The notes under the pieces: generated by a model | What the model saw: the letters and a program-made list of their open reading frames with translations, nothing else | What the model was told of the DNA's origin: nothing | Databases searched by the model: none | Program-made: the position numbers and the translations under genes | Part shown: in pieces, positions 5,458-47,238 of the stretch | How the letters are laid out: each line of letters begins with the position of its first letter | How positions within the stretch are numbered: the stretch's first letter is position 1 | Assembly (NCBI GenBank): GCA_965222225.1 | Contig: CBDCTK010000002.1 | Location: 800,001 to 864,000 of the forward strand | Reading direction: 5' to 3' | Length of the DNA stretch: 64,000 nucleotides | Source: Candidatus Poribacteria bacterium | GTDB lineage: Bacteria; Poribacteria; WGA-4E; JAJDTR01

Positions 5458-7221
5458 ATGCGGAAATTGGAAACCACTCCTGATATAACGTTAATAGAGA
5501 TGATGCTTGATGGTCAACTCATTTCTGAAATTGACCATCAACGGATTCTAGAGGATATCCATTCGGCTGGCCTTTCCGTCGCCGAAGCGCTCTTAAACCA
5601 TGTTGCGCCGGATATAGTTGCGTTCGCCAAGAAAGGAATGGAATGCGGTGTGTCATGTGTTCGTCTGGAGAACATCGAACCAGAGCTTGAAACGACACGG
5701 AAGATGCCTGCCGGATTTGCCTATAAAAACAAGATTGTTCCGATTCATTTAGATGGCAAGACACTTACCGTGGCGATGGCAGACGTGCTGGACGTCATGC
5801 TGATTGACGAGATTCGCCTCGTGACCGAGTGTGAGATTAAGCCGGTGCTTGCGGCTGAGGTGGATGTGGAAGCTGCCATTATCCGCATATATGGGAAAAC
5901 GGCGGGAACAATACTTAGCGAAGGCATCAGAGGTCCTGTCGGCGCGGTTTCAACTCTTCAGCGTGAAACGATTGATGATTTTGGTATTGATGAGAAGGAT
6001 CTCAGCCAAGATCCAACCGTAGTACATGCAGTTGATCAGATGATTATTGATGCTGTGCGATTGAACGCCAGCGATATCCACATTGAGCCGTTTCCCGGTG
6101 TGCTCAAGATTCGTTTTCGAATTGACGGTGTACTGGAAGACCAGCCACAACCTCCTTCACACCTGCAATCGGCGATTACCTCGCGTGTCAAGATTATGGC
6201 TGGAATGAACGTTGCTGAACGGCGCCGGCCGCAAGATGGAAAAATTGGAGTTACCGTTGGAAGTGTGGGAAACCGGCAGATAGATTTGCGTGTCTCAACA
6301 GTGCCAACGGTTGCCACATCGCAGGGCGAAAGCCTTGTCTTACGGATATTAGACAGACAGTCAATCTCTTTCGGATTGGAAGAACTTGGGTTAATGGAGG
6401 ACAATCTGTTATGTTTTGAACGGCTAATTCGAAAACCACATGGCATCATTCTAGCGACGGGGCCAACCGGTAGTGGCAAAACGACAACGCTGTACGCCTG
6501 CTTGAAGAAAATAAATACCCCGGAAGTGAAGATTATAACCATTGAAGAACCGGTTGAATATGAACTTGAAGGAATCAATCAGATTCAGGTCAATCCGGAT
6601 ATTGACGTCACGTTTGCGGCGGGATTGAGACATATCCTACGGCAAGATCCGGACAAGGTCTTAGTTGGCGAGATTCGCGACTATGAAACCGCCGAGATGG
6701 CAATTCACACTTCATTGACTGGCCATTTGGTTTTTAGCACACTGCACACGAATGACGCGCCAGGGGCTATAACTCGACTTATCGACATGCAGGTTGAACC
6801 CTATTTGCTTGCTTCGACCATAGAAGGAGTAATAGCCCAGCGCCTCGCTCGAAAAGTCTGCCAGAACTGTTGTGAAATGTATCATCCCGCGGAACTGCAA
6901 TTACAGGAGTTTTTCGGGCACCACTCTCAGGAGATTGAACCAAGTCTTTTAATTCCACGAGCCGTAGGTTGTAAGGAGTGCAGAGACAGAGGTTATAGGG
7001 GGCGCATTGGCATTTTTGAAGTTCTCGTCATGAGTGAGGAAATTCGAGCGATGACGTTACAACACACATCAACGAACCAACTTCGGCACGCTGCGATTAA
7101 GAGTGGAATGAAAACCCTTCGTGAAGACGGCTGGAAAAAAGTTGTTGCCGGTCAAACGACCATGGAAGAGATTATTCGGCTTACGCAAGAGGACGAATTT
7201 GGCATTGGAGAAGTTGCATAG
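5458..7221 (+). CDS. gspE: T2SS/T4P assembly ATPase GspE/PilB family
   Basis: ASDIHIEP, Walker A GPTGSGKTT, ILRQDPD-GEIRD, TGHLVFSTLHTND, tetracysteine CxxC…CxxC. Confidence 0.95.
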   Translation: MRKLETTPDITLIEMMLDGQLISEIDHQRILEDIHSAGLSVAEALLNHVAPDIVAFAKKGMECGVSCVRLENIEPELETTRKMPAGFAYKNKIVPIHLDGKTLTVAMADVLDVMLIDEIRLVTECEIKPVLAAEVDVEAAIIRIYGKTAGTILSEGIRGPVGAVSTLQRETIDDFGIDEKDLSQDPTVVHAVDQMIIDAVRLNASDIHIEPFPGVLKIRFRIDGVLEDQPQPPSHLQSAITSRVKIMAGMNVAERRRPQDGKIGVTVGSVGNRQIDLRVSTVPTVATSQGESLVLRILDRQSISFGLEELGLMEDNLLCFERLIRKPHGIILATGPTGSGKTTTLYACLKKINTPEVKIITIEEPVEYELEGINQIQVNPDIDVTFAAGLRHILRQDPDKVLVGEIRDYETAEMAIHTSLTGHLVFSTLHTNDAPGAITRLIDMQVEPYLLASTIEGVIAQRLARKVCQNCCEMYHPAELQLQEFFGHHSQEIEPSLLIPRAVGCKECRDRGYRGRIGIFEVLVMSEEIRAMTLQHTSTNQLRHAAIKSGMKTLREDGWKKVVAGQTTMEEIIRLTQEDEFGIGEVA

Positions 7222-7374
7222 TCTTCATGGATTCCTGCTTTCAGTATTCCTTATTTGGTAGTAACCGCTTGTGGACGTAAATCTAGCAACGGATATACAC
7301 ACGAAGGAATCATAAGACTGTCGACTTCTTCAATCGTAACGCTAAGTGTAGAGAACTAGGGACAATATCTACCG

Positions 7375-8598
7375 ATGCCCAGATTTCGCTACGAAGCTCT
7401 TACAAACACTGGTGGAACAGTTAAGAGCGTACAAGACGCAAGTTCCAGAGCGGAACTTGTCTATCAGCTGAAAGCCATGGGCTATTGGCCTCTGGACATC
7501 GTTGAGGATAACGCAGGCGAGACGGGTGACAAACGGATTCAGGTTCCCTGGTTTTCCGCTCGTGTGAAGTCAAAGGATGTGGAATTTTTCACCTATCAGA
7601 TGGCAACACTGATAAATGCCCACATCACTCTGCCACGCGCATTGGCAGTTACGCTCGAACAGATTGATCATCCAGGGTTTCGGCAGATTGTTGAGCGGAT
7701 TAAATACGATATCGAACACGGTTCTACGTTTCATGACGCCCTAAGTCAACACCCAAAGGTTTTTCCGGAGTTGTATGTCAACATGGTTAGGGCAGGAGAA
7801 TCGGGTGCGGTGCTCGGGGTGGTGCTAGAACGGCTCGCAAAATTCTCCGAGCGGCAGCGTTTGCTTAAGGCCGAGGTAATTTCGGCACTTTTTTATCCGG
7901 TAATTCTTTTCACTCTAAGTCTAGGTGTGATAGTTTTCTTGGTGTTGGTTGTTATCCCGAGGTTTGCCGATATGTTCGCCGATTTGGGGATCGATCTACC
8001 TTTGCCAACACGATTGCTGATAGGCACTGTTGGTTTTGTCAAGAGCTATTGGTGGGGGCTAATGATTGGGGGAGCTGCAACTATCTTGGGGATTGTGCAA
8101 TATTCTCGCACTGAAGGCGGAAAACTGGTTTTCGATATCTTGAAACTGAAGCTTCCGCTATTGAGAGCCGTTTGCAGCAACTATGCGCTCGTGCGCTTCA
8201 CACGAACAATGTCAACACTACTAGAGAACGGCGTTTTGCTTCTTCCCGCGCTTCGGGTTGTCAAGGGCACAATTGGAAATTTGGTCTATAGCAATGCGGT
8301 TGCCCAAGCAGAAAAGGGGCTTGAGCAAGGATCGACTTTGTCGAGAGAACTGCAGGAAAGCGCTGTTTTCCCCCCGCTAGTTGTTCATATGGTTGGAATT
8401 GGAGATGAGTCGGGTAATCCGGAGCAAATGTTAGCTAAACTTGCCGATTACTATGACTTGGAGGTACAACAAACCTTACAGCGGTTGACGAGTGCCATCG
8501 GACCGCTTGTAATTTTGATTATGGGAGTAATTGTCGGACTAATCGCGGTGGCAATAATACTTCCGGTGTTTAGGGCAAGTACATCGTTAGCCGGGTGA
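7375..8598 (+). CDS. gspF: T2SS inner-membrane platform protein GspF/PilC
   Basis: MPRFRYEA start, YVNMVRAGESG, three TM segments, VGIGDESG; follows gspE. Confidence 0.95.
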   Translation: MPRFRYEALTNTGGTVKSVQDASSRAELVYQLKAMGYWPLDIVEDNAGETGDKRIQVPWFSARVKSKDVEFFTYQMATLINAHITLPRALAVTLEQIDHPGFRQIVERIKYDIEHGSTFHDALSQHPKVFPELYVNMVRAGESGAVLGVVLERLAKFSERQRLLKAEVISALFYPVILFTLSLGVIVFLVLVVIPRFADMFADLGIDLPLPTRLLIGTVGFVKSYWWGLMIGGAATILGIVQYSRTEGGKLVFDILKLKLPLLRAVCSNYALVRFTRTMSTLLENGVLLLPALRVVKGTIGNLVYSNAVAQAEKGLEQGSTLSRELQESAVFPPLVVHMVGIGDESGNPEQMLAKLADYYDLEVQQTLQRLTSAIGPLVILIMGVIVGLIAVAIILPVFRASTSLAG

Positions 8599-8632
8599 AA
8601 ATGGTCGAAAAAGGTTCAATAAGGAGAGACAT

Positions 8633-9082
8633 ATGCTAATGCCAATAAAAACGGGTGAATCGGGGATGACGCTCATTGAACTTACGATTGTGATGGTGAT
8701 AATAGGGCTCTTGGCGGCGCTTGTTATTCCACAGTTTCGCGGCGTGGTTGATGACGCAAAACTGAAATCTGCCCAGAGCGAGATCCAAGTGTTTGAAAGT
8801 GCACTACAACGGTATTCAATTGATGTAGGGGATTATCCGGCCACAGAACAGAGTTTGATTGCGCTTTGGAACGCCGATAGTCTCACGTCAGGAAATTGGA
8901 GGGGACCATACGTATCAAAACCCAAGTTCAAAGATCCCTGGGGCAAAGATTACGTCTACCGGTATCCCAGTAATCATGAGGGATACGATTACGACCTATA
9001 CTCTTTGGGAAAGGATGGCAAAGAGGGCGGCGACCCACCTTTCAATGCTGATGTTACAAATTGGATTGAGTTAGCCGAATAA
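8633..9082 (+). CDS. gspG: Major pseudopilin GspG
   Basis: Prepilin site G|MTLIE, hydrophobic helix, NWRGPY, DPWGKDYVY, DLYSLGKDGKEGG C-terminus. Confidence 0.95.
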   Translation: MLMPIKTGESGMTLIELTIVMVIIGLLAALVIPQFRGVVDDAKLKSAQSEIQVFESALQRYSIDVGDYPATEQSLIALWNADSLTSGNWRGPYVSKPKFKDPWGKDYVYRYPSNHEGYDYDLYSLGKDGKEGGDPPFNADVTNWIELAE

Positions 9083-9118
9083 GCTGCAGATTTCTGTCGA
9101 TTTTCCCTATATGCACTC

Positions 9119-9787
9119 ATGAACCGGATTAGACGCCTCAAACATTTTACCTCGGAGACAGGCTTCACTCTCATAGAAGTGATGTTGGTGCTCACGTTAA
9201 TTGTGATTCTATCCACAATTACAATGCCATCTCTTCGTGGGTTCGCGGGTTCAACGCGCTTAAAGTCATCGGCGTCAGCCATTCGAGATATGCTGCACTT
9301 TGCGCGGGACATGGCTATCACGGAAGGAACTACCTACCTTGTTGTCTTTGATCTCGATCAAAACCGCTATTGGTTGGCCTCAAGTGAAATATTTCTCGCG
9401 TCAGATCTTGACGCGTCTCTAACTACGACTTCATCAAACATTGTCAACCAAATCGACACTCGCTCATCTGATGCGAGCCAGCCATCCGTTTCGCGCACGA
9501 GTATGATTCTCGGTATTCCTCAGGAGCCAAATCACAACATCCGTTTGTCGCAATTGGTTATCAACCATAACTCCCAGACAAGCCACATTCAATCTGGCAT
9601 TGAATACATCTATTTTTCTCCAACCGGTTCCTCGGAAGACACAATTTTGTACATTCAGGACCAAGATGGAGAAGTTGTATCCATTAGTGTGGATGCTGCT
9701 AGCGCTCGCGTACGAATTCAGGATATTGATGCCGAGGAGAACGGGGAGTTAGGCATGCTACCCCCTAGCAATAACCGTATGAATTGA
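9119..9787 (+). CDS. gspH: Minor pseudopilin GspH/FimT-like
   Basis: G|FTLIE prepilin motif, ARDMAI, IYFSPTG; position after gspG. Confidence 0.85.
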   Translation: MNRIRRLKHFTSETGFTLIEVMLVLTLIVILSTITMPSLRGFAGSTRLKSSASAIRDMLHFARDMAITEGTTYLVVFDLDQNRYWLASSEIFLASDLDASLTTTSSNIVNQIDTRSSDASQPSVSRTSMILGIPQEPNHNIRLSQLVINHNSQTSHIQSGIEYIYFSPTGSSEDTILYIQDQDGEVVSISVDAASARVRIQDIDAEENGELGMLPPSNNRMN

Positions 9788-9791
9788 AGGT

Positions 9792-10244
9792 ATGCGTATG
9801 CAGTTGCGATCGCAGATTAGAGCTTCATCAAAACCTCACCAATCCACGGCGGACGATGACGGTTTCACGCTCGTAGAAATCTTGGTGACCTTGACCGTCT
9901 TGTCGATTGCCCTTCCAGTGTTGATGTATTCCTTTAGGAATGCCGCCCATGGGCAGGCACAATCGGAGAATCGGACTACGGCGGTATACCTGCTTAAGTT
10001 TCGTATGGCGGAAATTGAGCTAATTGGCTACCCGGATATTGGAGAAGAGGACGGTGAGTTTGGTGAAAATTCGCGCTTTCGTTGGCATTCGAGCGTTCAA
10101 GACGTGACATCGGATGAAATCGAGAATCTAAGGCGCGTCACCGTTACCATAATGTGGCAGGAACAGGGAAGGGAGAATTCGATTTCCATGAACACCTATG
10201 TGGCAGATCGGGAAAAGCAGGTGCAAGGACAGAGCGGAAGTTAA
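9792..10244 (+). CDS. gspI: Minor pseudopilin GspI-like
   Basis: G|FTLVE motif, FRW…LRRVTVTIMW pattern; operon order. Confidence 0.85.
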   Translation: MRMQLRSQIRASSKPHQSTADDDGFTLVEILVTLTVLSIALPVLMYSFRNAAHGQAQSENRTTAVYLLKFRMAEIELIGYPDIGEEDGEFGENSRFRWHSSVQDVTSDEIENLRRVTVTIMWQEQGRENSISMNTYVADREKQVQGQSGS

Positions 10245-10263
10245 CAGGGCTAGGGGCAAGAGA

Positions 10264-11160
10264 ATGAGAATACGGAGAAAGGCAGTTGGAAAACCAGCGA
10301 GTCGACATTCCGGGCAAATACACAGCATGACGGAGCGTGGGTTCACGCTAATAGAACTGTTAATCGGTGTGACCGTCCTTGTCATTGTGGGCGGAGTTAC
10401 CTACAAGGTGTTTGATGCATCGGTAGATGTTTACCACAATTCCGAAACTCGGAAGACTATGGCACAAAAGTGCCGGGTCGCGTTGGATTTCTTGAGTAAG
10501 GATTTGAGAAATATTTATGCGGTGCAACAGGATGATTCGCTCGTTCTCATTTCACAGGATAATCCGAACGAAGCGGGGGACAGGGACATTATTAGCTTTG
10601 TCACACTACAGTATACCGACCCGGATCCTTTCCTCACACAACTAAATCAGGGATTAGAAACTGTACGGGCGGAGGAGTCGCTGCCGATAAGTGACGTACA
10701 GCGCGTCGCTTATTATGTTGGCCCCGATTTGTCACAATCAGGGGCCGAATCCGCAAGCCAGCGAGCCGATTTGACAGTGGCAGATGAGGGTGAGAATCTT
10801 GTTCTCTCGCGGATTGCAACGACCTCAATTGATCCGGAGACGGTAATCGCTTCTCTGTTCGATACGGGGACAATTCCAACAGAAGACGAGGATGGAAATC
10901 CAATTCATGTAGAGATTGCCCAAATAATCGATCGTGTGGCATCGTTCGATCTCAAATACTCGGATGGTGAAGATTGGTACGAGTCGTGGGAAGAAACCAA
11001 TGCCATTCCAAAGGCGGTTCAGATTCTAATCGCGGTGCTGACGGAGGATAATAGTCGAATACGTCAGAATTCGGGGCAGAACACGATGACTCAGTCGACA
11101 ATGATTTATCTACCTATGAGCGCCAATTTCGGAGGGCAAGATACCGGCGGACAGCCCTGA
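10264..11160 (+). CDS. gspJ: Minor pseudopilin GspJ-like (start could be 10264 or 10327)
   Basis: G|FTLIE motif, LSKDLRN, YSDGEDWYESW…PKAVQI typical of GspJ C-terminus. Confidence 0.85.
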   Translation: MRIRRKAVGKPASRHSGQIHSMTERGFTLIELLIGVTVLVIVGGVTYKVFDASVDVYHNSETRKTMAQKCRVALDFLSKDLRNIYAVQQDDSLVLISQDNPNEAGDRDIISFVTLQYTDPDPFLTQLNQGLETVRAEESLPISDVQRVAYYVGPDLSQSGAESASQRADLTVADEGENLVLSRIATTSIDPETVIASLFDTGTIPTEDEDGNPIHVEIAQIIDRVASFDLKYSDGEDWYESWEETNAIPKAVQILIAVLTEDNSRIRQNSGQNTMTQSTMIYLPMSANFGGQDTGGQP

Positions 11161-11208
11161 GGAATATCAAGCGGTTGAAGGAATACCGAGGAAGACAGGT
11201 TACGTGCC

Positions 11209-12666
11209 ATGCTTTGCCTTTTCCGTCCCACCCCAAGTATATTAAGGAAGATGCGCCGCTCATCAAATGAACGCGGTCTTTCTCTCGTCGGTACGCTCTG
11301 GATTATAACGATTCTTTCCGTGTTGGCGACACAGTTGCTCCACTCCATTTACCTTGAACGTCGTGTTCAGGCTAATTTTGCGGATCGAACGAAATATCAC
11401 TTTGCCGCGAAGGCGGGATTTGAGCATACGCTTGCAATGCTTCGTGGAGATAGCACGCCGTTTGATTCGCTCGGAGAAGTCTGGGCAGCTACCGTAGAAG
11501 ATCGCATTGAAGATGGTATAATTGACGGGACTATGCTCACCTATCAGGTAGACATTAGCGACGAAAGTTCAAAGGTAAATATCAATACTGCCGAGGTAGA
11601 CACAATTCAGAGACTCTTGGATCTACTAGGTTATGAGAATGTTCAATCTCCCAATCAATCGCTTGCCGATTCAATTGTTGCGAGCCGCCCTTTTCGAACC
11701 GTGCGCGACCTTGCCAAAGTCCCGGGTGTGACTACGACGATACTCTACGGCAGACAACAGCCAACTGTTGGAGGTTTAACTATTGAAGATACTGAAACAC
11801 AGAATATGTCGGGATTGATTAAGTTTACAACAGTCTATTCAGTTGATACGAACACGGATTCGAGCGGTGAAAGACGGCTAAATATCCGGAGTACTGAATC
11901 GCAGCAACTGGTCCAACTTCGGGGCACTAATAATCAACCTGTCTTCAGTCAAGGTGAGGCAGATTCTCTCATCCAACAACGTGATTCGATTGAGAATATC
12001 GGCGATGTTCTCAATCTTAAAGCTATCTCGGAACAAGCCTTCAATAGTATTCGAGATAGGATTCGCACTGATGGCGGTGGAGGTAACGAGGGATTGGTGA
12101 ACATAAACACTGCCGATGCGAATCAATTGCAAACGCTTGATGGCATTGATGAAGGTATTGCCATTCGGATTATCGATCATCGCAACACCCAAGGAAACTT
12201 CCAAAATGTTGATGCAATCAGGGATGTGAATCTAGTCACGACAGATGAATTCAAGAGTATCGTTGATAAGATCTCCACAACTGACGACGAGATATTAAAC
12301 GGTCTAGTCAACATCAACACCGCCTCGTTAGAGGTTCTGCAACTCCTTCCGGAAATGGATGAGTCCAAAGCACAGGCGGTAATCACCCGTAGAGAGTCTG
12401 AGCCAGAAAGTAGTCAACAGACACAAGCGCAATCACAAGATGAAATTGAGGGCAATCCATTTACCGATATTGGTCAACTCCTTGATGTGGAAGGAATTGA
12501 CCCGGATACATTTCAGCAGATAGCAGGGCTCGTTGCGTATCGGTCGCATGGGTTTCTAGTCGAAGCAGCCGGGATTGACGCACGAGGGCGAAAAATCGCG
12601 TCATGTACTGGAGTAGTTGATCGGACGGGACAGACGGTAACGGTTAAGTATTGGCGACAGAATTAG
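11209..12666 (+). CDS. gspK: Minor pseudopilin GspK-like with four HhH/ComEA-like repeats (likely start 11251)
   Basis: ERG|LSLVGTLW prepilin-like site, DSLGEVWA, ISDESSKVNINTA; repeated xNINTA…F units. Confidence 0.85.
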   Translation: MLCLFRPTPSILRKMRRSSNERGLSLVGTLWIITILSVLATQLLHSIYLERRVQANFADRTKYHFAAKAGFEHTLAMLRGDSTPFDSLGEVWAATVEDRIEDGIIDGTMLTYQVDISDESSKVNINTAEVDTIQRLLDLLGYENVQSPNQSLADSIVASRPFRTVRDLAKVPGVTTTILYGRQQPTVGGLTIEDTETQNMSGLIKFTTVYSVDTNTDSSGERRLNIRSTESQQLVQLRGTNNQPVFSQGEADSLIQQRDSIENIGDVLNLKAISEQAFNSIRDRIRTDGGGGNEGLVNINTADANQLQTLDGIDEGIAIRIIDHRNTQGNFQNVDAIRDVNLVTTDEFKSIVDKISTTDDEILNGLVNINTASLEVLQLLPEMDESKAQAVITRRESEPESSQQTQAQSQDEIEGNPFTDIGQLLDVEGIDPDTFQQIAGLVAYRSHGFLVEAAGIDARGRKIASCTGVVDRTGQTVTVKYWRQN

Positions 12667-12689
12667 CGCTGAGTACAAAGTAGGTCAAG

Positions 12690-14414
12690 ATGGCGAAAAA
12701 TCTAGTTATAGCTGTTGATATAGGTACAAACACAGTCAAGCTGGTACAGTTTGCACTAAACTCGTCGGAGATACGGCTTGTCAGAACAAGCGTTGCCAGT
12801 TATCCCCGTGAGAGTGCGACCGGAGACATAAACGCGGAAACAGTATCGCGCACCTTCGAAGAACTGTGGCATGAGGTCAAAGGAGGGAAGCACACGGTCA
12901 TATTGTCAATTCCCAGACTGCTGGTGACAACTCGCCGATTAACAGACTTTCCAGCGTCGGCAAGCGATGAGCAGTTGTCCAGTCTAGTATCCATGCAGGC
13001 TGAAACCGAAATTCCCTTTAGTGCGGAAAATGCCATTTTCGACTACCATGATGTTCACCGTGGGGAAAATGGAGTTTCCGTGGAGCTAATTGCCGCAAAG
13101 CGCAAAAGCGTGCAGAAATACATTGATTATCTACAATCGATTGACGTTGTACCGATGGAAATCATTCCGTCAACGATGGCAACCGCAGCGTTAGCACGGC
13201 GTCTCCTTGGTGAGAATGCGCCAGATCAGACTACAATGATTGTCGATATTGGCGCGGGCAACACAGATATCTGTTTGTTTCAAGGGCAGAAACTTGGATT
13301 TTCCCGAAGTTTTCCGATCGGCGGCAACAACCTAACGCTTCGCTATCAGGATGAAGTTGGCGGTGATTTTGAGTTTGCCGAGCGCATAAAGCTGGGACGT
13401 TCCGGGCTTGACCAAGAATCGACTGATAGGATTCCCACCGACCAATGGGCAGAACAGTTGGCAACACAGATTGAGCAGTCAATCGGGGCGGCACGACGAG
13501 AGTCGGAGTCTGCCTCGTCGGCTAAGGTAGATGAAATCTGGATTTCTGGCGGCGGGGCGCAAGTCTCCGGATTGCCAAATTACTTCACAAACCGGCTTGG
13601 AATTACTACGAGGCCCTGGAATCCGCTAGATGCTTTCAGCGAACAGGGTGGGAAGATTGACACGGCGCCTGTGGGCAATATTGGCGTTACCCTTGCTGTT
13701 GCACTAGGACTGGGCATGAATGCGGCTACCCATGACATAACCTTAGATTTGTTGCCCGGAGAAGAAAAAGCCAAATTGACACAGAGTGAACAGAGGCGGC
13801 GATTGATATACAGCTTTGCCGCAGGAGTAGTTCTATTTGCGGGCATTGGGCTTGGCGGGCTAACATTTAGCAGAACCCAGCAGATGGAAACCGCAGTTTT
13901 GGACGAACAGCTACGGCATATCTCACAATCGGAATTGCGAGCGAAACAGGCGCTCGCCAAGAACTTGGCGACTGCCGACCTTTTGACGCCTCGCGTGTCA
14001 GTGCTGGATATACTCCGCGTATTGAGCCTACGATTTTCTGATCGGACTAGGGTTGCATGGACCAATTTCCATATTATTCGTTTGGATGAACTCGACTCGG
14101 CGAAAATTACGTTCAACATTGAAGCTAAATCTCACGGCGATGTAAGTGAAATGATTCGTGTAATGGGGCAGTCGGGACTGTTCGCCAATATAAAATCGGG
14201 AGACGTCACAAGCGTTAGGCGTGAAAGAGAGGTGTTTTTTCAAACTCAAGTCGTGTGTAATCTGTCCCCGGATGCTCCACGATTGCTTGCACAAACTCGA
14301 TTCCCCGGCACAGTGGCCGGAATCCAGGACCGAGGAGAAGAAGAGATAGTACAATCGGACAAAAAATCGACCACAGAACGTCCACAGTCACCAAGCACGA
14401 ATACTAGGTTGTAG
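12690..14414 (+). CDS. pilM: PilM-PilN fusion (GspL equivalent): actin-like cytoplasmic domain + TM + periplasmic domain
   Basis: IAVDIGTNTVKLV, IVDIGAGNT, IGGNNLT, ISGGGAQ, ALGLG, then LDLLP (PilN INLLP-like) and a TM helix. Confidence 0.85.
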   Translation: MAKNLVIAVDIGTNTVKLVQFALNSSEIRLVRTSVASYPRESATGDINAETVSRTFEELWHEVKGGKHTVILSIPRLLVTTRRLTDFPASASDEQLSSLVSMQAETEIPFSAENAIFDYHDVHRGENGVSVELIAAKRKSVQKYIDYLQSIDVVPMEIIPSTMATAALARRLLGENAPDQTTMIVDIGAGNTDICLFQGQKLGFSRSFPIGGNNLTLRYQDEVGGDFEFAERIKLGRSGLDQESTDRIPTDQWAEQLATQIEQSIGAARRESESASSAKVDEIWISGGGAQVSGLPNYFTNRLGITTRPWNPLDAFSEQGGKIDTAPVGNIGVTLAVALGLGMNAATHDITLDLLPGEEKAKLTQSEQRRRLIYSFAAGVVLFAGIGLGGLTFSRTQQMETAVLDEQLRHISQSELRAKQALAKNLATADLLTPRVSVLDILRVLSLRFSDRTRVAWTNFHIIRLDELDSAKITFNIEAKSHGDVSEMIRVMGQSGLFANIKSGDVTSVRREREVFFQTQVVCNLSPDAPRLLAQTRFPGTVAGIQDRGEEEIVQSDKKSTTERPQSPSTNTRL

Positions 14415-14531
14415 GTAGAATCTCAAGATGAATCCTTTGTGAGTGGTAGTAGATGAGATAACGGTGTTTGAATGTTTTGGTATTGAACGTCACACGCGGG
14501 TTTATTGAGACACTAACGGAAATTGGGTACG

Positions 14532-16037
14532 ATGAGGAAATTAACAAAACGTGAAAAAACGCTGTTAGGTATTGTTGGACTGATTAGCCTCGTAGTCCTT
14601 CTTCTGAGAGTTCTGCCTACAGTTCTGCAAGGGTTGACAGGGACTATGATAGCCGAAAAGCGCGAACGACTTCAATCGGCAAAGAATTTGGTCTTATTGG
14701 ACAAACAGGCGAACCGAATTGACGAGAGTCTACGTGAACTGGTGGGCTTACAGGGGCGGCTGATTTCGGACTCTTTATTTGACGAAATCTCGCAATTGTA
14801 TAATTTACAGACCCTCAACCAAACGCGTCAAATATCGGATTTGGTAGCGTTACATCCTGCTTTGGAGGGCAAAGCGGCGACTCTTTTCGCGTATAAGGAC
14901 CAGCGCGGCGGTTTTACCAAACTGGAAGAATTGAAAACGATTCATGGGTCAATCTTTGAAGGGGAGCAGCCGCGGGTAGTGATTTCGCAATGGATTTCGC
15001 AACTAGCAAGAAAATCTGGTCTCAAACCGGATTACCAACTCAACATCAAACCTTCTCCAGGCAAGAAGACTGAAAAAATCTCTCGTCAGGCAAAACGGAA
15101 TTTCGTTTTGTACAGCTACATGAACGGGCTGGAAGATGAACTTAAGCGCCTCAAAGAACAGGCAGAACAAAAGGCAGAACTGTCACAAGGGAAGCTAGAT
15201 GAAGAGAGTGAGCTGGAGCGTGCGATGTTCGAAGGATGGTGGGGAGATTCTGACTTCGCCAAGGCTAACAACAGCGACATTAAGGATGGCGTATCGCAAG
15301 AAGCCAAACCAGCGAAGGACGAAGCGGCAGTCTACGCCGATCTTAATAGCAATTCCTCATCGGATAGAATTCCGGCTAGAAACCGAGATTTGTCAAAAGC
15401 TAAAGTTCGGTTAAGAAATGAAAATCTAAGTTTCGCACAGTTACCGGCGATTATTCCAATAGAATTGCGGGTCCCATTGATCGAATTTATTCTCTCATTT
15501 ATTACGTTGGAACTAAATGGGGCGACAGAGTTCAAGCGAGGTATCTTTTCAGACCAGATTTCCCGCGTCGATGAAGGCACGTCGCGTAAGTTTCTGGAGT
15601 TTGGACAGACGGGATCCAGTGTCCAAGTTAGGCTTAGAGAGGATAGCGTTCTGCTCGCGAAATTTGAAGATTTGATTGGTCGTTACGAAGCAACTCAGAT
15701 CAATGATTCGGGGGAATCAACTGATGGTATTCTTGACTACGAAGAACAAATAATGGTTTTAACCGAATATGTCGATTATACCGAACTGCAGATTAAACAG
15801 CTCGAAAACTGGCTTGCCGGCGTTTCGTTGACATACCAGCCAGAATTTTACGGTGTTGAGGTGAAGTTCAAAAGTGGAGTAGGCACCATGGTAAAGCTAA
15901 TAGAATCAATTGATGTTTCTACGAAATGGCTGCATGTCAGAAACCTTAAGATTATCAAAGACAAATCGGAGAAAAAAGAGGAGGAAGAAGGAACTAGGGT
16001 CAGTGTGGAGTTATCAATGATGGCACGAATCCTATGA
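14532..16037 (+). CDS. Enlarged GspM/PilO-like protein with internal HhH-like segment
   Basis: KLTKREKTLL + TM N-terminus typical of GspM; C-terminal VEVKF…VKLIESI…LHVRNLKI PilO/GspM-type fold; ~500 aa. Confidence 0.65.
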   Translation: MRKLTKREKTLLGIVGLISLVVLLLRVLPTVLQGLTGTMIAEKRERLQSAKNLVLLDKQANRIDESLRELVGLQGRLISDSLFDEISQLYNLQTLNQTRQISDLVALHPALEGKAATLFAYKDQRGGFTKLEELKTIHGSIFEGEQPRVVISQWISQLARKSGLKPDYQLNIKPSPGKKTEKISRQAKRNFVLYSYMNGLEDELKRLKEQAEQKAELSQGKLDEESELERAMFEGWWGDSDFAKANNSDIKDGVSQEAKPAKDEAAVYADLNSNSSSDRIPARNRDLSKAKVRLRNENLSFAQLPAIIPIELRVPLIEFILSFITLELNGATEFKRGIFSDQISRVDEGTSRKFLEFGQTGSSVQVRLREDSVLLAKFEDLIGRYEATQINDSGESTDGILDYEEQIMVLTEYVDYTELQIKQLENWLAGVSLTYQPEFYGVEVKFKSGVGTMVKLIESIDVSTKWLHVRNLKIIKDKSEKKEEEEGTRVSVELSMMARIL

Positions 16038-16143
16038 CAAAAACGCGAGTAGATTGGGGGCAACCCTGTTCTCATTGTGGGAATTAAGTTGCTTAAATCC
16101 GATGAGTACCCCATTGTTTTGGATAGAGGTGTGATTACCAATA

Positions 16144-19116
16144 ATGAATTCATATTGTTATAAAATTGGCAGGCGGCAACCTAGCTATTTTGCTCTCTTA
16201 CTTCTTATTGTGCTGGCTGCCAATTTGGCGATTATCGGAAGGGTCACGTTTGCGCAGGATGATGAAAAAGCTATGAGCGTATCGGAGCGCGACGAAACCG
16301 GAAGAGCAATTCGGTTTGATTTCAACTTCATTAGCAAGGATCTCAGAGACCTAATTAGATTTTTGAGTCAGGAAACCAATCTGACATTTGTTGCTTCCGA
16401 AAATGAAATCAAGGACAAAAAGTTTGCTTTGACGAACCTCAAAAATGTCACTATGGTTGAGATGATGGAGGAGGTCAAAACCGTCTTGTCGACCTATAAT
16501 CTGACAACAATTCGCGACGGAAACACCGTGCTTATCACAACCTTCGAAAAAGCGGTGCAGATGAAGGTGCCGGTCAAACGAATCACCGCGGATGCGAGCC
16601 AAGTCGAGATGATTGACGAGATTCAGACCTACATCATTCAGTTGGAAAATGCCGTCGCGTCTGAACTCGTGGGAGGTCTCAAACCACTGTTGAACAAAGC
16701 GGCGAATATATTCGCCGATGCAAACAGCAATTCTTTGGTAATTACGGATGTTGCTTCAAACGTACGCCGAATTGCATCAATCTTAGAAGTTGCCGATGAA
16801 GCACCGGAAATGCCGCTCAAGGTGGAAATTGTCCCACTGGAAAACGCTACCGCATCCTCGCTAGCTGCAACCTTGAATCAAGTATTCCAAGATGAGACGC
16901 AGATTGCAAATGTACTCAGGACTATGGGAGCCGCCAAGAATCCTGAAGAGATGCACAGAATGATCGAGAAAGCGAAAGACGATGGAGCCGGCATCGACAT
17001 GATTAGGGGGCGAATCTACATTGCTGCTGACGAAAGCTCGAACTCATTGGTCATCAAAGCGTCCGATGCTAATCTGGTTGCGCTGAAAGACGTAATACGT
17101 CAGCTTGACACTGCACCAAACATTCAGACGGAAATCAAGATATTCCGACTGAACTTGGCAATTGCCGCGGATGTCGCACGAACGCTCGAGGAAGTCATCA
17201 CGGGGCAAAGCGCCGGCAGACGGCCTGGTAGCAGGGCGCAATGGTGGGAACGTCGGGAATGGGATCGTCGCCGGCGAGATGTGCAGCAGGATCGTCGAGG
17301 ACAGGAGTATCAGGGCATTATCGGAAGCGTAAATGTCTCATTCAATGACCGACTGAATGCTGTAGTTGTCTCTACTGATCAGCGGAATCTTCCCTTGATA
17401 GAGAAACTCATAAAGGAGCTCGATCAAGCCGATCCACAAGAGGAAGTCCGAATCTTCTTCCTCAAATTCGCGGATGCTCAGACACTCTCCGATAATTTAG
17501 TAGATCTTTTTGAAGGCGGCACTGCAGGCAGGGACAGGAATAGACCATGGTGGGAAGATCGGGAACAACGCCAATCACAGGATAGTAACTTCGGAGTTCA
17601 GGGAACAGTGCATTTGGTACCGGATTCCAGACTAAACGCACTATTGGTTTCGACGGCTTCGCAGAATTTTCCGACCATTGAAAATCTCGTGGAGCGGCTT
17701 GATGTAAGCATGCCGGATCAGGAATGGGGTACAAAGGTATATCCGTTGAAATACGCGGATGCCGAGAATGTGTCCAACATAATCAACAATGTCTATCAGG
17801 GCGGAAATAACAATAGCAGTTTCTTTTCTTTCCTCCCCCAGCGAAACCAGAACGAAGGATCGCTCGCTGGAAATGTGACTGCGGAGCCGTACATCACTCT
17901 AAACGCGGTAGTTGTAACGACTGCTACACAACGCAACTTTGAACTGATTTCTGAGTTTATTCGCGAACTTGATGTGCCGACTCCTGAAGAACAGAGAGAG
18001 ATTACGCGATTGATTCGGTTGGAGTATGCCAGTGCACAGGAGACCGAAGACCTGCTGGAGAGCATCTGGAGTGAAGGCGGAGATGGCGGATCGGACTTCA
18101 GTTTTAGACGTTTCGTTGCATCGGGCGGGCGCCTTGAACAGAAGGATATCAATTCCCTTCGCGGTCAGGTGGAGATAGCGGCGGACATTCAGACCAATTC
18201 GCTTCTTGTAAGAACTGCCCAGCGGTATATGCCGCAGGTTCAAGCTATGATTGAGCAACTCGACTTTGTGCGGGGACAGGTTTGGATTGACATTCAGATT
18301 CTTGAAGTAACACTGGATGAAAGCACAAAACTCGGAATTGAGCTAACGGCACAGGAGAACAGACTCTTTGGTGAGCAACTCCGAAGTGGAAATCCACTGG
18401 TTGGGAGTGTAGACACGCAGTTAGGGTTGGATCAGGAGATTAGCGGGTTCACCTATAGCATTGCAACGAAGGAGTACATGGGATTGCTTCACATTCTCCT
18501 GCGCGAGAACAAAGTGAAGACATTGTCAACTCCTTCGCTGCTGACTCGAGATAACCAGCAAGCCACGTGGAGTCGTGGACGTACGATTCCATACTTGCAG
18601 AGCGTGGATACGACCAGTCTCCTCGGGGAGGGAGTGAATCAACCTTTATTCAATTACGACTTCATCAGTCCGCCTGTTGGCATAAACATTACGATTACGC
18701 CACACATTGCCAGATCACGAGAGGGATCCGACGGTAAACGTACCATCGGTCTTGATATTGAGCAGATCCAGGCAAGCAATTTCATTGAGTTCACTGATTT
18801 TAACGCGCCAATAACGGAAGATAGTTCAATCAGCGCTTACATTGATGTCGAAGATGGACAGCAGATTGTAGTGGGCGGGATGATCAAGACCAAACAGCAG
18901 GAAGTCGAGAGTAAGGTGCCGATTCTCGGAGACATTCCGTTCGTCGGGCGTCTGTTCAAGCGAACAGAAAAGGTTTCAGAAAACTCCGAAATTGTCATTA
19001 TTATCACACCTCATATCGTCGATATTAAGAACCCCGAGGATTTGGATAAGCTACGGAAGGAAACTGACAAGTGGCGTTCGAATAATGACCAAGGAGAATC
19101 GACACAGGAACAGTAA
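16144..19116 (+). CDS. gspD: Secretin GspD, elongated (990 aa)
   Basis: Signal peptide, six repeated N-domain units, QVWIDIQILEV, TPSLLTRDNQ, KVPILGDIPFVGRLF, IIITPHI. Confidence 0.95.
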   Translation: MNSYCYKIGRRQPSYFALLLLIVLAANLAIIGRVTFAQDDEKAMSVSERDETGRAIRFDFNFISKDLRDLIRFLSQETNLTFVASENEIKDKKFALTNLKNVTMVEMMEEVKTVLSTYNLTTIRDGNTVLITTFEKAVQMKVPVKRITADASQVEMIDEIQTYIIQLENAVASELVGGLKPLLNKAANIFADANSNSLVITDVASNVRRIASILEVADEAPEMPLKVEIVPLENATASSLAATLNQVFQDETQIANVLRTMGAAKNPEEMHRMIEKAKDDGAGIDMIRGRIYIAADESSNSLVIKASDANLVALKDVIRQLDTAPNIQTEIKIFRLNLAIAADVARTLEEVITGQSAGRRPGSRAQWWERREWDRRRRDVQQDRRGQEYQGIIGSVNVSFNDRLNAVVVSTDQRNLPLIEKLIKELDQADPQEEVRIFFLKFADAQTLSDNLVDLFEGGTAGRDRNRPWWEDREQRQSQDSNFGVQGTVHLVPDSRLNALLVSTASQNFPTIENLVERLDVSMPDQEWGTKVYPLKYADAENVSNIINNVYQGGNNNSSFFSFLPQRNQNEGSLAGNVTAEPYITLNAVVVTTATQRNFELISEFIRELDVPTPEEQREITRLIRLEYASAQETEDLLESIWSEGGDGGSDFSFRRFVASGGRLEQKDINSLRGQVEIAADIQTNSLLVRTAQRYMPQVQAMIEQLDFVRGQVWIDIQILEVTLDESTKLGIELTAQENRLFGEQLRSGNPLVGSVDTQLGLDQEISGFTYSIATKEYMGLLHILLRENKVKTLSTPSLLTRDNQQATWSRGRTIPYLQSVDTTSLLGEGVNQPLFNYDFISPPVGINITITPHIARSREGSDGKRTIGLDIEQIQASNFIEFTDFNAPITEDSSISAYIDVEDGQQIVVGGMIKTKQQEVESKVPILGDIPFVGRLFKRTEKVSENSEIVIIITPHIVDIKNPEDLDKLRKETDKWRSNNDQGESTQEQ

Positions 19117-22151: not shown

Positions 22152-23038
22152 GAGCCTGTTTGAAAAGTCATTTGATTCGATTTCGCATCAAGTAAATGGA
22201 AGCGATGTAAACCATAGTTTCAGCGGTCTTAGGATAGCGTTCATAGTCCAAAGTCAATCGACGAAACCAACCAAACCAAGAAAATGTGCGCTCAACAATC
22301 CATCGTAACGGAACAACCTCAAACCCCTGTTGCCCTAGCGTAGGTGCAATCTCCAGTTGACACTGATGAGCCAGATATAACCAGTCTTCTAATTCGCCAC
22401 GATAGGCAGCATCGGCACACACCAACTGAATCGTTATGTACCAACTAAAGACTTCTGTTAGTAGTTCAATAGCTATCTGATTATCACTCACATTGGCGTC
22501 AGTGACCTTGACCATCAATCGAATACCCGTCGTATCCGTGACTAGATGTCGTTTGCGTCCTTTGACCTTCTTGTGACCATCAAACCCTCTAGTCGTTGCC
22601 AGTTCAGTCGTCTTAACTGATTGACTGTCAATGATAGCTACTGTCGGTGATGGTTCTTTGCCACCATCACGACGTGTTTGTTCATGAAGTGACTGATGAA
22701 TCAAGAGCCATGTATCGTCGGCTTTCCACTTTCTGAAATGGTAATAGACAGTTTGCCACGGTGGCATATCATGGGGTAGCATTCGCCACTGGCACCCTGA
22801 CTTGACGACATAAAAGATGGCGTTGATGATTAAGCACATCTCCCACTTGAGAGGTCTGCCTAAGGGTTGAGGTGTTGGCAAAAATGATGACAGTTTCTTG
22901 CACTGTGCATCGGTCAAATCGCTGGGATAACTCTTGCGGTTTATGTTTACTCCTTTCATTGGTTCAGAATTAACTGCTCCAATGAGTAAACGTAAACATC
23001 AACCGTTCGGACAACTTTTTTCTTTTTCAAACAGGCTC
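22152..23038 (-). mobile_element. IS5-family insertion sequence (IS1031-like), 887 bp, apparently intact
   Basis: Perfect 15-bp terminal IRs GAGCCTGTTTGAAAA (22152-22166) / TTTTCAAACAGGCTC (23024-23038); TTA flanks both sides (22149-22151, 23039-23041). Confidence 0.95.
22168..22959 (-). CDS. IS5-family DDE transposase
   Basis: YPSDLTD, GCQWRMLP, IIDSQSVK, KGRKRH, ADAAY, RWIVERTFSW. Confidence 0.95.
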   Translation of the reverse strand: MKGVNINRKSYPSDLTDAQCKKLSSFLPTPQPLGRPLKWEMCLIINAIFYVVKSGCQWRMLPHDMPPWQTVYYHFRKWKADDTWLLIHQSLHEQTRRDGGKEPSPTVAIIDSQSVKTTELATTRGFDGHKKVKGRKRHLVTDTTGIRLMVKVTDANVSDNQIAIELLTEVFSWYITIQLVCADAAYRGELEDWLYLAHQCQLEIAPTLGQQGFEVVPLRWIVERTFSWFGWFRRLTLDYERYPKTAETMVYIASIYLMRNRIK

Positions 23039-26940: not shown

Positions 26941-27051
26941 GATTCTACTCCTCTCCACTATTTTGAACTCTGATTCCAGATCGACAAGACGCAACTCACC
27001 CTATGCCTAAAACATTGAACCCATAGATGTTCAACCGCGTAAGTCCCACTC

Positions 27052-45800: not shown

Positions 45801-47238
45801 ATGAATCTAGCGATTGAAAATCGTATTGTCGATGAAATTTTTGCCAACTCGGAAGCGTATGGAAACCTGCTTGTCCTTGCTGATGACATCGGTCCCCGCC
45901 TCATCGGTACTCCTAACGAAATTAGAGCCCGAGATTACTTGGTGAAAAACCTTTGCCGGTACGGACTAGATAACGTCCGTACCGAAGCATTTCCGCATCA
46001 AGCTTGGAGATCAGAAAGAGAAGAGCTGCATATCATGGCGCCCGTTGAACGAGAAATCGGGTGCCGCTCCACCGTTTTGTCAGCCTCCACACCTGCGGCC
46101 GGGGTAGAGGGTGAGATTGTGCTGCTTGAGCGATGCGATCGCCCTGAGCTTTAAGAACACAAAGAACGTGTGAAGGAACTGATTGTTGTTGCCCATTACG
46201 ATCCGATCCCGCGTCACTTAAAAACACCGTTAGCTACAGAATACGGTGCTATCGCCTTGCTTGAGGCGTTTGGATTCCCGGGGTCCCATCTGTCGGCACG
46301 CGCCTGTGTCTACGAGCAGGTGGCACCCATTCGTTGCTTCCATTAGTAAAGAGGGCCACGACTACGTGCGATGCCTTGAGCAAAGGAAGAGAACTGTCAA
46401 GTTACGACTAACTCTCGACAGCGGCTTCGAGAAAAAAGATGGGTGAAATGTCGTTGGCGAGATTCGTGGAGTGGAGGATTCCCCCGAACATATCGTTATG
46501 GGCGCACATTACGACTCACATCATATTGCACCGGGTGCAGCGGATAATGCTTCTGGAGTTGTCACTATTGTCGAAGCGGCGCGGGCGCTTGTTCAGCACA
46601 GAGAGCACATAAAGCGTACAATCAAAGTGGCGTTTTTCAGCGGCGAAGAGGTTGGGCTAGTTGGCGCTTAGGCTTATACGCATCAACATTACGACGAACT
46701 CGAAGGCACCATCCTAATGCTGAACAACGACGGACAGGGAGGACGACCAAACGGAGTTAGCATCAACACCACTGATGAATTCAAGCCCATTCTGGAGGGG
46801 ATTTCCGAATTGACGGTGAGGTCCTTCACCTTTACAAGATTTCGGTAGGCCGTCCCGGCTGGTATGGAGTCGATCTGTTTCCCTTTCTGTTGAACGGTGT
46901 CCCGGCAATGCTCGCCCATTCTTCGCCCTACCGTCCGAATGACTTCGCCTACGTCCATATCGCAGCGGACACAGTTGATAAAGTATTAGCGCCCGGGCTG
47001 ACCGAATCTGCTGCCGTGAACGCACAAATCGCTTTTAATTTGCAAATCTGCCCGCGTGGCCTGCCCCCGAAAATCACAGCAAGAGCTAGAAGAGATGTTC
47101 GAGAGCTACAATTACATTGAAACATTAGAACTTCTTGATATGTGGCCCGCAGAGCATGCCAAGAAGCGGTTTTTTTTGACTAATCATGCTAGTCAAATGT
47201 GCATGAAAGGAGAGGAGGATGCAAGCCGTATACATTGA
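45801..47238 (+). pseudogene. Disrupted M28 aminopeptidase (carboxypeptidase Q-like, PA domain)
   Basis: Fragments IGPRLIGTPNE, G*NVVGEIRG, GAHYDSH, GAADNASG, FSGEEVGLVGA*, HIAADTVDK separated by in-frame TAA/TGA/TAG stops and several frameshifts. Confidence 0.9.

Follow-up and report, generated by a model that had tools for sequence, protein, structure and literature searches.

The mechanism of type II secretion systems (T2SS) is known almost wholly from Proteobacteria. The T2SSs of other phyla have, according to Denise et al. (PMC6668835), little or no experimental support, and the T2SS is held to derive from the type IVa pilus (T4aP; Denise et al. 2019, PMC6668835). A ten-gene cluster in a 64,000-nucleotide stretch of Poribacteria DNA (the window) raises the question whether a machine with both secretion-type and pilus-type parts exports proteins, builds a filament or takes up DNA. 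The ten co-directional ORFs, all intact, lie on the forward strand at positions 5458–19116 in the order E-F-G-H-I-J-K-[PilM-PilN fusion]-[~500-aa GspM-type]-D, with intergenic gaps of at most 153 nt (Table 1; the fusion and the GspM-type protein are referred to as L and M), and Pfam and NCBIfam scans agree with the gene content that an earlier note had read from the letters. In our preferred reading, to which we assign a probability of about 0.72, the cluster is a Poribacteria phylum-specific T2SS variant with a pilus-type platform; with such an inner-membrane platform and unusually long tip, platform and outer-membrane parts, it would therefore be a form of an already known machine that is particular to one lineage, not a new kind. 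No account of Poribacteria T2SS architecture was found in the literature.

The scans covered the ten cluster ORFs and the 41 other ORFs of the window (51 in total), with E. coli K-12 gspC-O (L033) as the control for lengths and domains. Promoter and terminator scans gave sites not above shuffled-sequence counts, and Rfam gave no match in the window and chance-level hits only upstream of E. As a side observation, no solved chain resembled the last 95 aa of the M6 peptidase at E ≤ 10.

Table 1 Features of the Poribacteria cluster (positions in the window; residues are those of the respective protein).
Feature	Position	Strand	Evidence
E, assembly ATPase of GspE/PilB type, 587 aa, with N-terminal MshEN	5458..7221	+	Pfam T2SSE 1e-128, MshEN 8e-17
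F, inner-membrane platform protein, 407 aa	7375..8598	+	Pfam T2SSF, 2 stretches
G, major pseudopilin GspG, 149 aa	8633..9082	+	TIGR01710 GspG 128.4 bits, above cut-off 88.85
H, minor pseudopilin, 222 aa	9119..9787	+	N_methyl and GspH; TIGR01708 GspH 3e-12, under cut-off
I, minor pseudopilin, 150 aa	9792..10244	+	N_methyl and T2SSI; TIGR01707 GspI 1.4e-9, under cut-off
J, minor pseudopilin, 320-aa ORF	10198..11160	+	N_methyl at residues 45–69, T2SSJ; TIGR01711 GspJ 9e-13
K, tip pseudopilin GspK with enlarged helix-hairpin-helix (HhH) cap, 485 aa	11209..12666	+	NF037980 GspK 7e-26; T2SSK 1.7e-19; HHH_3
K, HhH modules, residues 118–462 (clearest 291–357, 365–430)	11560..12594	+	Sub-region scans
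L (ORF 8), PilM-type actin-like cytoplasmic domain, residues 1–345	12690..13724	+	PilM_2 4e-34, residues 9–344
L, PilN-type peptide motif ITLDLLPGEE, residues 350–359	13737..13766	+	Aligns with PilN peptide of engineered PilM-PilN chain 5eou
L, transmembrane segment 371–394 and periplasmic PilN-like part 395–574	13800..14414	+	Hydropathy; Pfam PilN E = 0.076
M, GspM-type platform protein, 501 aa	14532..16037	+	Family link through distant relatives; ORF 9 (504 aa) runs from TTG at 14523
M, degenerate HhH, residues 96–145 of 504-aa ORF, followed by basic segment 146–200	14808..14957	+	HHH_3 E = 0.011–0.07
D, secretin GspD, 990 aa	16144..19116	+	TIGR02517 GspD 399.8 bits, above cut-off 351.35
D, periplasmic N0 (~58–128) and six N-domains (164–222, 227–325, 332–430, 435–522, 530–614, 621–707)	16315..18264	+	6 Secretin_N stretches
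D, secretin pore domain, residues 787–960	18502..19023	+	Pfam Secretin 1.9e-36

When the pseudopilins are compared with curated families, G passes the GspG cut-off and has GspG/PulG as its closest solved relatives (9e-18); its C-terminus, SLGKDGKEGG, is of the GspG type, as had been noticed before, and its likeness to the type IVa major pilin is confined to the shared N-terminal helix (PilA models reach 27.5 bits; cut-off 400). A prepilin motif is present in all four of H, I, J and K, and each of them matches best the corresponding Gsp minor pseudopilin model, with scores that, like that of F, lie under the NCBI equivalog cut-offs. The J ORF overlaps the end of I at its start and, because the prepilin motif lies 45 residues into it, the true start of J is most likely at 10264 or 10327. 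K lacks Glu at +5 from the predicted cleavage site, and a missing Glu5 is a hallmark of GspK.

Similarly, D is a GspD and not a PilQ: the PilQ model gives 218 bits, under its cut-off of 284, no AMIN domain was matched, the closest solved relatives are GspD (134 bits) ahead of PilQ (66 bits), and residues 58–220 match the solved N0-N1 part of GspD (5e-8). Where E. coli GspD has three Secretin_N domains, D has six, with boundaries taken from an HMM built from three of its own repeats; of the 26 homologues scanned, 24 have six such stretches and two have five. By analogy, the extra domains should lengthen the periplasmic channel. The PilQ of Thermus thermophilus, which likewise stacks multiple N-domains, has six N-terminal rings that are said to span a wide periplasm (PMC5745081); that protein serves pili and DNA uptake, whereas D is placed with GspD by its curated score and its N0-N1 match. 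From the six N-domains and the Thermus likeness, adaptation to a wide periplasm may reasonably be inferred for D. A search of the literature, including the accessible text of a microscopy paper (PMC5087111), found no figure for the width of the Poribacteria periplasm.

The inner-membrane proteins are less clearly of the secretion type. E scores 579 bits against the NCBIfam GspE model (cut-off 630) and 556 bits against PilB (cut-off 676), and among solved structures PilB ranks above GspE (443 and 396 bits); judged by these scores, E is not clearly a GspE. F reaches 367 bits with GspF (cut-off 424), and 336 and 307 bits with the PilC models. A plasmid collection considered as a source of references for a tree of E contains mostly GspE and lacks a clearly labelled PilB set, and one candidate in it, a Deferribacter megaplasmid, was discarded as it proved to be a conjugative pilus locus. 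The same collection searched with L gave only unfused Acinetobacter PilM.

The PilM of T4aP is an actin-like protein that binds ATP and the N-terminal peptide of PilN, and L (574 aa) is a PilM by sequence. PilM_2 scores 118 bits (cut-off 27), and TIGR01175, at 129.5 bits, narrowly misses its cut-off of 133; the L family profile matches solved PilM chains (4e-28 to 5e-23) and no solved GspL at E ≤ 1, and Pfam gave no T2SSL or GspL_C match (a comparison with the single E. coli GspL sequence by hhalign, at 8% probability, is uninformative). Among 15 sequences, the nucleotide-binding motifs DIGT, DIGAG and GGG are invariant, as are L354, L355, E358 and E359 of the peptide motif, and in the protein atlas, residues 350–540 of P0065, a homologue with 77% identity, are similar to PilN clusters (scores of 0.93–0.95). 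The PilM-PilN fusion described in the earlier note is, accordingly, present in all its parts, i.e. the actin-like domain, the LLP peptide motif, one transmembrane segment and a PilN-like part.

When set beside the PilM-PilN-PilO-PilP subcomplex of T4aP (Myxococcus, Pseudomonas, Thermus), L shares the PilM domain, the LLP peptide placed as in 5eou and the PilN-like periplasmic part; in contrast, its PilM and PilN form one polypeptide, which is paired with a GspM-type protein of 500 aa, a search for PilP gave no match, and pilin, minor pilins and secretin are Gsp-type, with no PilT. In structural terms, GspL itself corresponds to PilM and PilN taken together (Berry and Pelicic, PMC4471445), and L has the same architecture as GspL, with an actin-like domain in the cytoplasm, a single membrane segment and a ferredoxin-like part in the periplasm. 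A fused PilM-PilN beside a GspM-type protein is, therefore, a T2SS platform architecture with a T4aP-like sequence. The earlier label of a T2SS/T4P hybrid was overstated, given that the fusion has GspL architecture and that canonical GspK already has HhH-like modules (see below). A literature search for T2SSs whose L is of the PilM type gave nothing relevant.

The sequence of L and the preference of E for solved PilB are also the features that favour, over an exporter, a type IV filament machine that builds pili or is distinct in some other way, either a T4aP-derived adhesion fibre comparable to Akkermansia Amuc_1098-1102 or a member of the TXSScan "generic" class. L matches the Amuc_1101 family over residues 1–415 (4.6e-32), at 111.6 bits and far under the cut-off of 650. 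The Akkermansia cluster, which is discussed as pili-like, resembles the Poribacteria one in having a PilM-like protein of ~600 aa that extends past its actin-like domain and adjoins a secretin (PMC5332112), and many systems outside Proteobacteria are left in the unclassified "generic" class (Denise et al., PMC6668835). However, as described in that paper (PMC5332112), the Akkermansia cluster has no adjoining E-F-G-H-I-J-K set, and the Amuc_1098 secretin model matches D only at residues 886–960, the last 75 of the pore domain. The GspG identity of G, the complete H-I-J-K set including GspK and the GspD identity of D likewise speak against a filament machine, as do the single E-like ATPase of each locus, with no PilT-like second one, and a GspC-like gene in relatives. 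We regard such a machine as unlikely.

The start of M is most likely at 14532 (MRKL), which gives the length of 501 aa seen in homologues. In the window, M matched no Pfam or NCBIfam family at E ≤ 0.01 (GspM_XpsM, E = 0.18), the family profile found neither GspM nor PilO among solved structures up to E = 10, and hhalign against the single E. coli GspM sequence was uninformative. The homologues of M fall into 59 clusters; with a family-profile search, T2SSM and/or T2SSM_b were identified in 15 of 18 distant relatives (three above Pfam cut-offs). GspM_XpsM was matched in six distant relatives (1e-6 to 1e-3), in the mid-distance homologue P0194 (1e-4) and in L027 (0.0093). For homologue P0013, the protein atlas has a model of low confidence, whose nearest neighbours are T2SSM_b/PilO models. 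These matches suggest that the C-terminus of M is related to GspM, only by way of its distant relatives.

The claim of the earlier note that two components carry ComEA-like HhH segments stands for K, where HHH_3 matches four stretches (1.5e-35) and the ComEA HhH model TIGR00426 reaches 78.4 bits (cut-off 53.1), and is weak for M (Table 1). Residues 284–356 of K also match a solved ComEA chain (8dfk, 6e-6); the M segment matches a ComEA chain at E = 0.47 only, and its relatives carry HHH_3 at 24–43 bits (6 of 7 reach the cut-off of 27) and ComEA-type HhH at 4e-8 to 9e-5. HHH_3 occurs together with T2SSK in all 31 K homologues, and the HhH modules are among the best-conserved parts of K. E. coli GspK has no HHH_3 match and BLASTP of K against it was not significant; it carries both the T2SSK and T2SSK_1st Pfam models, which cross-match HhH-rich proteins, so that, on the evidence of these models, HhH-like modules are already part of canonical GspK. 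We know of no DNA role for these modules, and found no paper that combines GspK with helix-hairpin-helix.

The resemblance to ComEA, a periplasmic DNA receptor, underlies the alternative that the cluster is a DNA-uptake (competence) machine, in which the HhH modules of the K tip and of M would bind DNA. The DNA would then be drawn in by way of the long secretin, as happens in Thermus, whose six-ring PilQ serves DNA uptake (PMC5745081). In addition to the matches above, the net charges of the M HhH-like part (+0.9) and of the segment that follows it (+6.8) are consistent with this possibility. However, the two best HhH modules of K are acidic (−6.1 and −10.2), their hairpin glycine and basic positions being replaced by acidic residues (LDGIDEGIA, LPEMDESKA), and the C-terminal 200 aa of the 31 K homologues have charges of −9 to −29, compared with −2.2 for the HhH part of E. 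coli YbaV/ComEA; because that homologue is also mildly acidic, the charge case against DNA binding is weaker than expected. The K modules differ further from ComEA in lying inside a pseudopilin. In the lineage of the window, the M HhH has lost its hairpin glycines and reads LHPALE, with H111, P112 and L114 invariant. The 51 window ORFs scanned include no comEC, dprA, pilT or comEA standing on its own, and G and D are Gsp-type. The suggestion of DNA or polyanion binding made in the earlier note is not borne out by the acidic K modules, the Gsp-type G and D and the lack of competence genes in the window, and DNA uptake appears to us very improbable.

The absence from the cluster of GspC/PilP, PilT and a prepilin peptidase, as reported before, extends to the 41 other ORFs of the window, and tblastn with E. 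coli GspO and GspC gave no match, either in the window or in any of the 32 loci of relatives (~20 kb each); a prepilin peptidase gene may lie elsewhere in the genome. In 4 of the 32 related loci, a weak GspC_delta-like gene (2e-7 to 5e-4), not seen in the window, is located between M and D. The HR domain of GspC contacts the secretin N0.

All ten genes are present in the same order in 29 of the 32 Poribacteria loci, at 39–91% identity (in L017, E extends beyond the sampled stretch); contig ends truncate the remaining three, in which the genes that are left stand in the same order. The lineage-specific form proposed in the earlier note is supported by this analysis: gene order and protein lengths are conserved throughout Poribacteria, and the extra segments of K and M belong to the best-conserved parts of these proteins, so that the objection set in advance, that the extra segments might not be conserved in relatives, fails. 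The same observations bear on whether the cluster could be a decaying or inactive remnant, its long proteins being the product of drift, of insertions or of artefacts in ORF calling. The locus lacks GspC and the prepilin peptidase, and related clusters have taken up mobile DNA (nine loci have restriction-modification genes between K and L, and L015 has a TnpB gene); however, these insertions fall between genes and not inside them, the window ORFs are intact and the gene order and extra segments are conserved, which leaves a remnant barely credible.

In the preferred reading, i.e. a T2SS variant, the cluster can be compared directly with the classical proteobacterial systems (Gsp/Pul/Eps/Xcp). 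Both have, in one locus, E to K, an L-type protein that is bitopic, a protein of the M type and a GspD with N0, and share the classical GspG C-terminus, a K without Glu5 and the lack of a retraction ATPase. The Poribacteria L differs in being a PilM by sequence that has kept the nucleotide-binding motifs and lacks T2SSL/GspL_C. The unusual lengths of K, M and D pointed out earlier hold when compared with E. coli K-12: K has 485 aa against 327 and four HHH_3 stretches against none, M has ~501 aa against 153 and an HhH-like insert, and D has 990 aa against 650 and twice the Secretin_N domains. Finally, D is the last gene of the Poribacteria cluster, and gspC and gspO are absent from the locus.

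By analogy with the studied T2SSs, the most likely mechanism is one in which the PilM-type cytoplasmic domain of L would hold the E hexamer at the membrane and E would drive the F platform, which would build a short periplasmic pseudopilus from G; primed by the H-I-J-K tip, the pseudopilus would push folded periplasmic proteins outward through the D secretin. Compared with the proteobacterial model, the platform would consist of a natural PilM-PilN fusion with nucleotide-binding motifs kept and a GspM-type protein enlarged three-fold, the K cap would be doubled by ComEA-type HhH modules, and D would present N0 and six ring-forming N-domains. Gene content, family assignments, domain counts and conservation within the phylum are results of the sequence analysis; we infer from them that proteins are secreted, that L touches both M and E and that the channel is longer. 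The cargo is inferred as well, with the secreted hydrolases and surface proteins of Poribacteria symbionts as candidates.

A more far-reaching version has the cluster as a deep-branching T2SS that still runs on a nucleotide-binding PilM-PilN platform, uses the conserved HhH arrays of the K tip and of M at the platform for handling cargo or polymers, and provides the missing export route for surface proteins with Por-type C-terminal sorting domains. Poribacteria have many such proteins, yet the Por (type IX) machinery is absent, a question left open by Kamke et al. (2014, PMC3909097). We consider this version doubtful.

As a T2SS variant that occurs throughout a phylum and in which PilM and PilN are fused into a platform that probably binds nucleotides, the cluster would bear on the origin of the T2SS from T4aP. 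The seven-domain periplasmic part of its secretin, together with the enlarged K and M, would offer a natural test of how such machines scale with envelope dimensions. Poribacteria are uncultured, sponge-associated symbionts, and the cluster is the only candidate outer-membrane protein exporter in the window; it would, therefore, provide a handle on how hydrolases leave these cells or how eukaryote-like proteins come to be displayed on their surface.

The ten co-directional ORFs fill positions 5458-19116 of the window on the + strand with short gaps, between the housekeeping genes def, fmt, a PASTA-domain gene, rpe and an aminotransferase gene upstream and, on the opposite strand downstream, the housekeeping genes for an FGE-sulfatase and a lipoate ligase. 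Family scans of the cluster, and of 41 other window ORFs, among which no GspC/PilP, PilT or prepilin peptidase was detected, agree with the earlier note on both gene content and these absences; the note's description is thus correct apart from two small start changes (M and J). The window also encodes an unusual fusion of a Rieske domain with a thiamine-diphosphate enzyme, two transposase ORFs, and a full alcohol dehydrogenase followed by an ORF that may be a gene fragment.

Features of the cluster (single-letter proteins), of related loci (L with three digits) and of the rest of the window
Feature	Coordinates	Strand	Length (aa)	Position or family-scan result
E		+	587	T2SSE, MshEN
F		+	407	T2SSF
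G		+	149	GspG 128.4 bits, above cut-off (88.85)
H		+	222	prepilin motif; best match GspH
I		+	150	prepilin motif; best match GspI
J	start most likely 10264 or 10327	+	320	prepilin motif; best match GspJ
K		+	485	GspK 7e-26; T2SSK; four HHH_3 stretches; ComEA HhH model 78.4 bits (cut-off 53.1)
L		+	574	PilM_2, residues 9-344
M	start most likely 14532	+	504	no family match at E<=0.01
D		+	990	GspD 399.8 bits (cut-off 351.35); six Secretin_N stretches
GspC-like gene	L008:13402-14244; L027:13293-14132; L028:13293-14141; L030:13293-14135		280	between M and D
DNA methylase	L008:8265-9931; also L010, L011, L015-L019, L022			between K and L
TnpB-type gene	L015:4021-5187 (- strand)			between G and H; OrfB_IS605 plus Cas12f1-like TNB
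Rieske fusion	window 24931-26994	-	687	Rieske [2Fe-2S]; complete thiamine-diphosphate enzyme (N, M, C domains)
Transposase ORFs	window 22168-22959; 53354-54028	-; +		one IS4/IS5-family (DUF4096 plus DDE_Tnp_1); second, shorter DDE ORF
Zinc alcohol dehydrogenase	window 47219-48175	+		full
Possible fragment	window 48241-48786	+	181	partial ADH_zinc_N only
M6-family peptidase	window 35664-37925	+	753	Peptidase_M6

Curated scores and best matches place G, H, I, J, K and D with the Gsp proteins and tilt F towards GspF. E scored 579 bits against the curated GspE model and 556 bits against PilB, both below the cut-offs, and, among solved chains, 443 bits against PilB and 396 bits against GspE. Each locus has one ATPase, and none has a prepilin peptidase within ~10 kb. 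We consider the cluster to be a variant type II secretion system (T2SS), with a probability of about 0.7; a pilus-type or unclassified filament machine, a reading favoured by the higher score of E against solved PilB, appears unlikely.

The long K, M and D remarked on previously stand out as claimed in comparison with E. coli K-12. E. coli GspK (327 aa) has T2SSK_1st and T2SSK without HHH_3, whereas K of the window is longer and has four such helix-hairpin-helix (HhH) stretches. T2SSK models are cross-matched by HhH-rich proteins, which points to a GspK cap that is HhH-like in general and is doubled in K. Within K, conservation is highest in modules 3 and 4 (mean top-residue frequency 0.83 and 0.80 vs. 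0.72-0.74 in the pilin core), which are strongly acidic (net charge -6.1 and -10.2); that the cluster serves DNA uptake seems quite improbable. E. coli GspD (650 aa) comprises N0 and three Secretin_N stretches, whereas D comprises N0, with residues 58-220 matching solved GspD N0-N1, and six N-domains spanning 164-707. The six rings of Thermus PilQ are said to span a wide periplasm (PMC5745081); no measurement of periplasm width in Poribacteria was found in the literature searched.

A profile of 15 L homologues matched solved PilM chains of Myxococcus, Pseudomonas and Thermus (4e-28 to 5e-23) and no solved GspL chain at E<=1; the actin-fold glycine-rich motifs DIGT, DIGAG and GGG are invariant across the alignment. 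Against the engineered PilM-PilN chain 5eou, the aligned region continues into the PilN peptide, with the family motif ..LDLLP.EE (residues 350-359) opposite INLLPWRE of PilN, followed by a single hydrophobic segment (371-394). For the part beyond, the protein atlas shows similarity to PilN clusters (scores of 0.93-0.95, obtained with a homologue of 77% identity), and Pfam PilN matches weakly (E=0.076). Taken together, these features bear out the proposed fusion and identify L as a natural, complete PilM-PilN fusion. Since the counterpart of GspL is PilM plus PilN, according to Berry and Pelicic (PMC4471445), L has the architecture of a T2SS platform; of the alignment complex previously described as type IVa pilus-like, the sequence is so and the architecture is not. 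Long PilM-like proteins resembling L are already present at the database level (NCBIfam Amuc_1101). No description of a PilM-type L within a T2SS, or of an HhH-rich GspK, was found in the literature.

M had no family in direct searches. Alignment, hydropathy and charge indicate an N-terminal membrane helix, a coiled coil, an HhH-like segment (96-145), a basic segment (146-200, net +6.8), a poorly conserved acidic linker and a conserved C-terminal domain. An M-profile search of 1.84 billion representatives returned 83 proteins; among the 18 distant relatives, i.e. those aligning mainly over the N-terminal helix and C-terminal domain, 15 match T2SSM and/or T2SSM_b (Pfam, E<=0.01), three of them above curated cut-offs. 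Six distant relatives match NCBIfam GspM_XpsM at 1e-6 to 1e-3, whereas the mid-distance P0194 gives 1e-4, M of L027 0.0093 and M of the window 0.18. A low-confidence atlas model of an M homologue lies nearest to T2SSM_b/PilO models. Mid-distance relatives show HHH_3 (24-43 bits, 6/7 at or above the cut-off of 27) and ComEA-type HhH (4e-8 to 9e-5). Through this homology chain of relatives, we call M a probable GspM-type protein into which an HhH has been inserted. This HhH is degenerate in the lineage of the window, its glycine hairpin replaced by an invariant LHPAL; of the two components once said to carry HhH segments, K does so and M retains a degenerate form. In four mid-distance GspM-type relatives (P0194, P0195, P0196, P0198), HhH and C-terminal domain are separated by a Jag_N domain (2.6e-10 to 1e-16); elsewhere, this domain is known from Jag/EloR, which binds RNA.

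A scan of 185,579 species genomes yielded 32 related loci, 31 titled Poribacteria and one (L009) 'uncultured bacterium'. The full ten-gene order recurs in 29 loci (E of L017 extends past the stretch examined); L023, L029 and L032 stop at contig ends, retaining 2, 5 and 7 genes in order. Lengths are maintained (K 485-536, L 558-635, M 476-550, D 987-1060 aa), all 31 K proteins combine HHH_3 with T2SSK, and 24 of the 26 D proteins scanned, four near-duplicates being omitted, have six Secretin_N stretches (five in the other two). This conservation upholds the suggestion of a lineage-specific variant; that the cluster is a remnant is very improbable. L007 and L029 are copies of the cluster on two contigs of one MAG; they share the same identity with the window (70% for L, 87% for D) and reflect a duplication either of the locus or in the assembly.

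Nine of the 32 loci have a DNA methylase insert (Pfam N6_N4_Mtase, 2.6e-40) between K and L, which the window lacks. It is accompanied by a full 222-aa partner of unknown family in L008, L018 and L022 and by partner fragments in L010; in L017, a C5 methylase is also present, along with a Bpu10I-like endonuclease. A TnpB-type gene occurs in one locus.

Four loci carry an extra gene whose product has a signal peptide and a highly charged C-terminal tail, matches NCBIfam GspC_delta far below cut-off (2e-7 to 5e-4) and matches no Pfam family; neither the window nor any of the other 28 loci has this gene. As the E+F+L+D tree (midpoint-rooted, 29 sequences, 2540 columns) divides the four loci between two separate branches, we infer that the distribution suggests an ancestral GspC-like gene since gone from the locus in the window's clade. 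The GspC-like proteins have, N-terminally, one copy of a motif of ~28 residues (PPFA..LE..GI....L..D.ELRKK) that is present twice in the distant M relative P0221 (pairwise E-values 5e-8 to 1e-5, composition-uncorrected) and may be a common docking module.

The 59 clusters of M homologues include a sole organism name, Candidatus Poribacteria, and, by the names available, Poribacteria appear to be the only carriers of the M family and of this set of features. No description of a poribacterial T2SS was found in the literature, in which the supplementary tables of Denise et al. 2019 could list similar systems. The last ~90 residues of the M6-family peptidase (YPNP ... GVYLY ... ending ..VIR) may represent a Por/type IX C-terminal sorting domain. 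Pfam at E<=1e-5 gave Peptidase_M6 alone for this protein, and no solved chain matched. Kamke et al. 2014 (PMC3909097) report many Por-type tags in Poribacteria, with no Por system or secretion pathway found. On the boldest reading, the machine would export these Por-type-tagged surface proteins.
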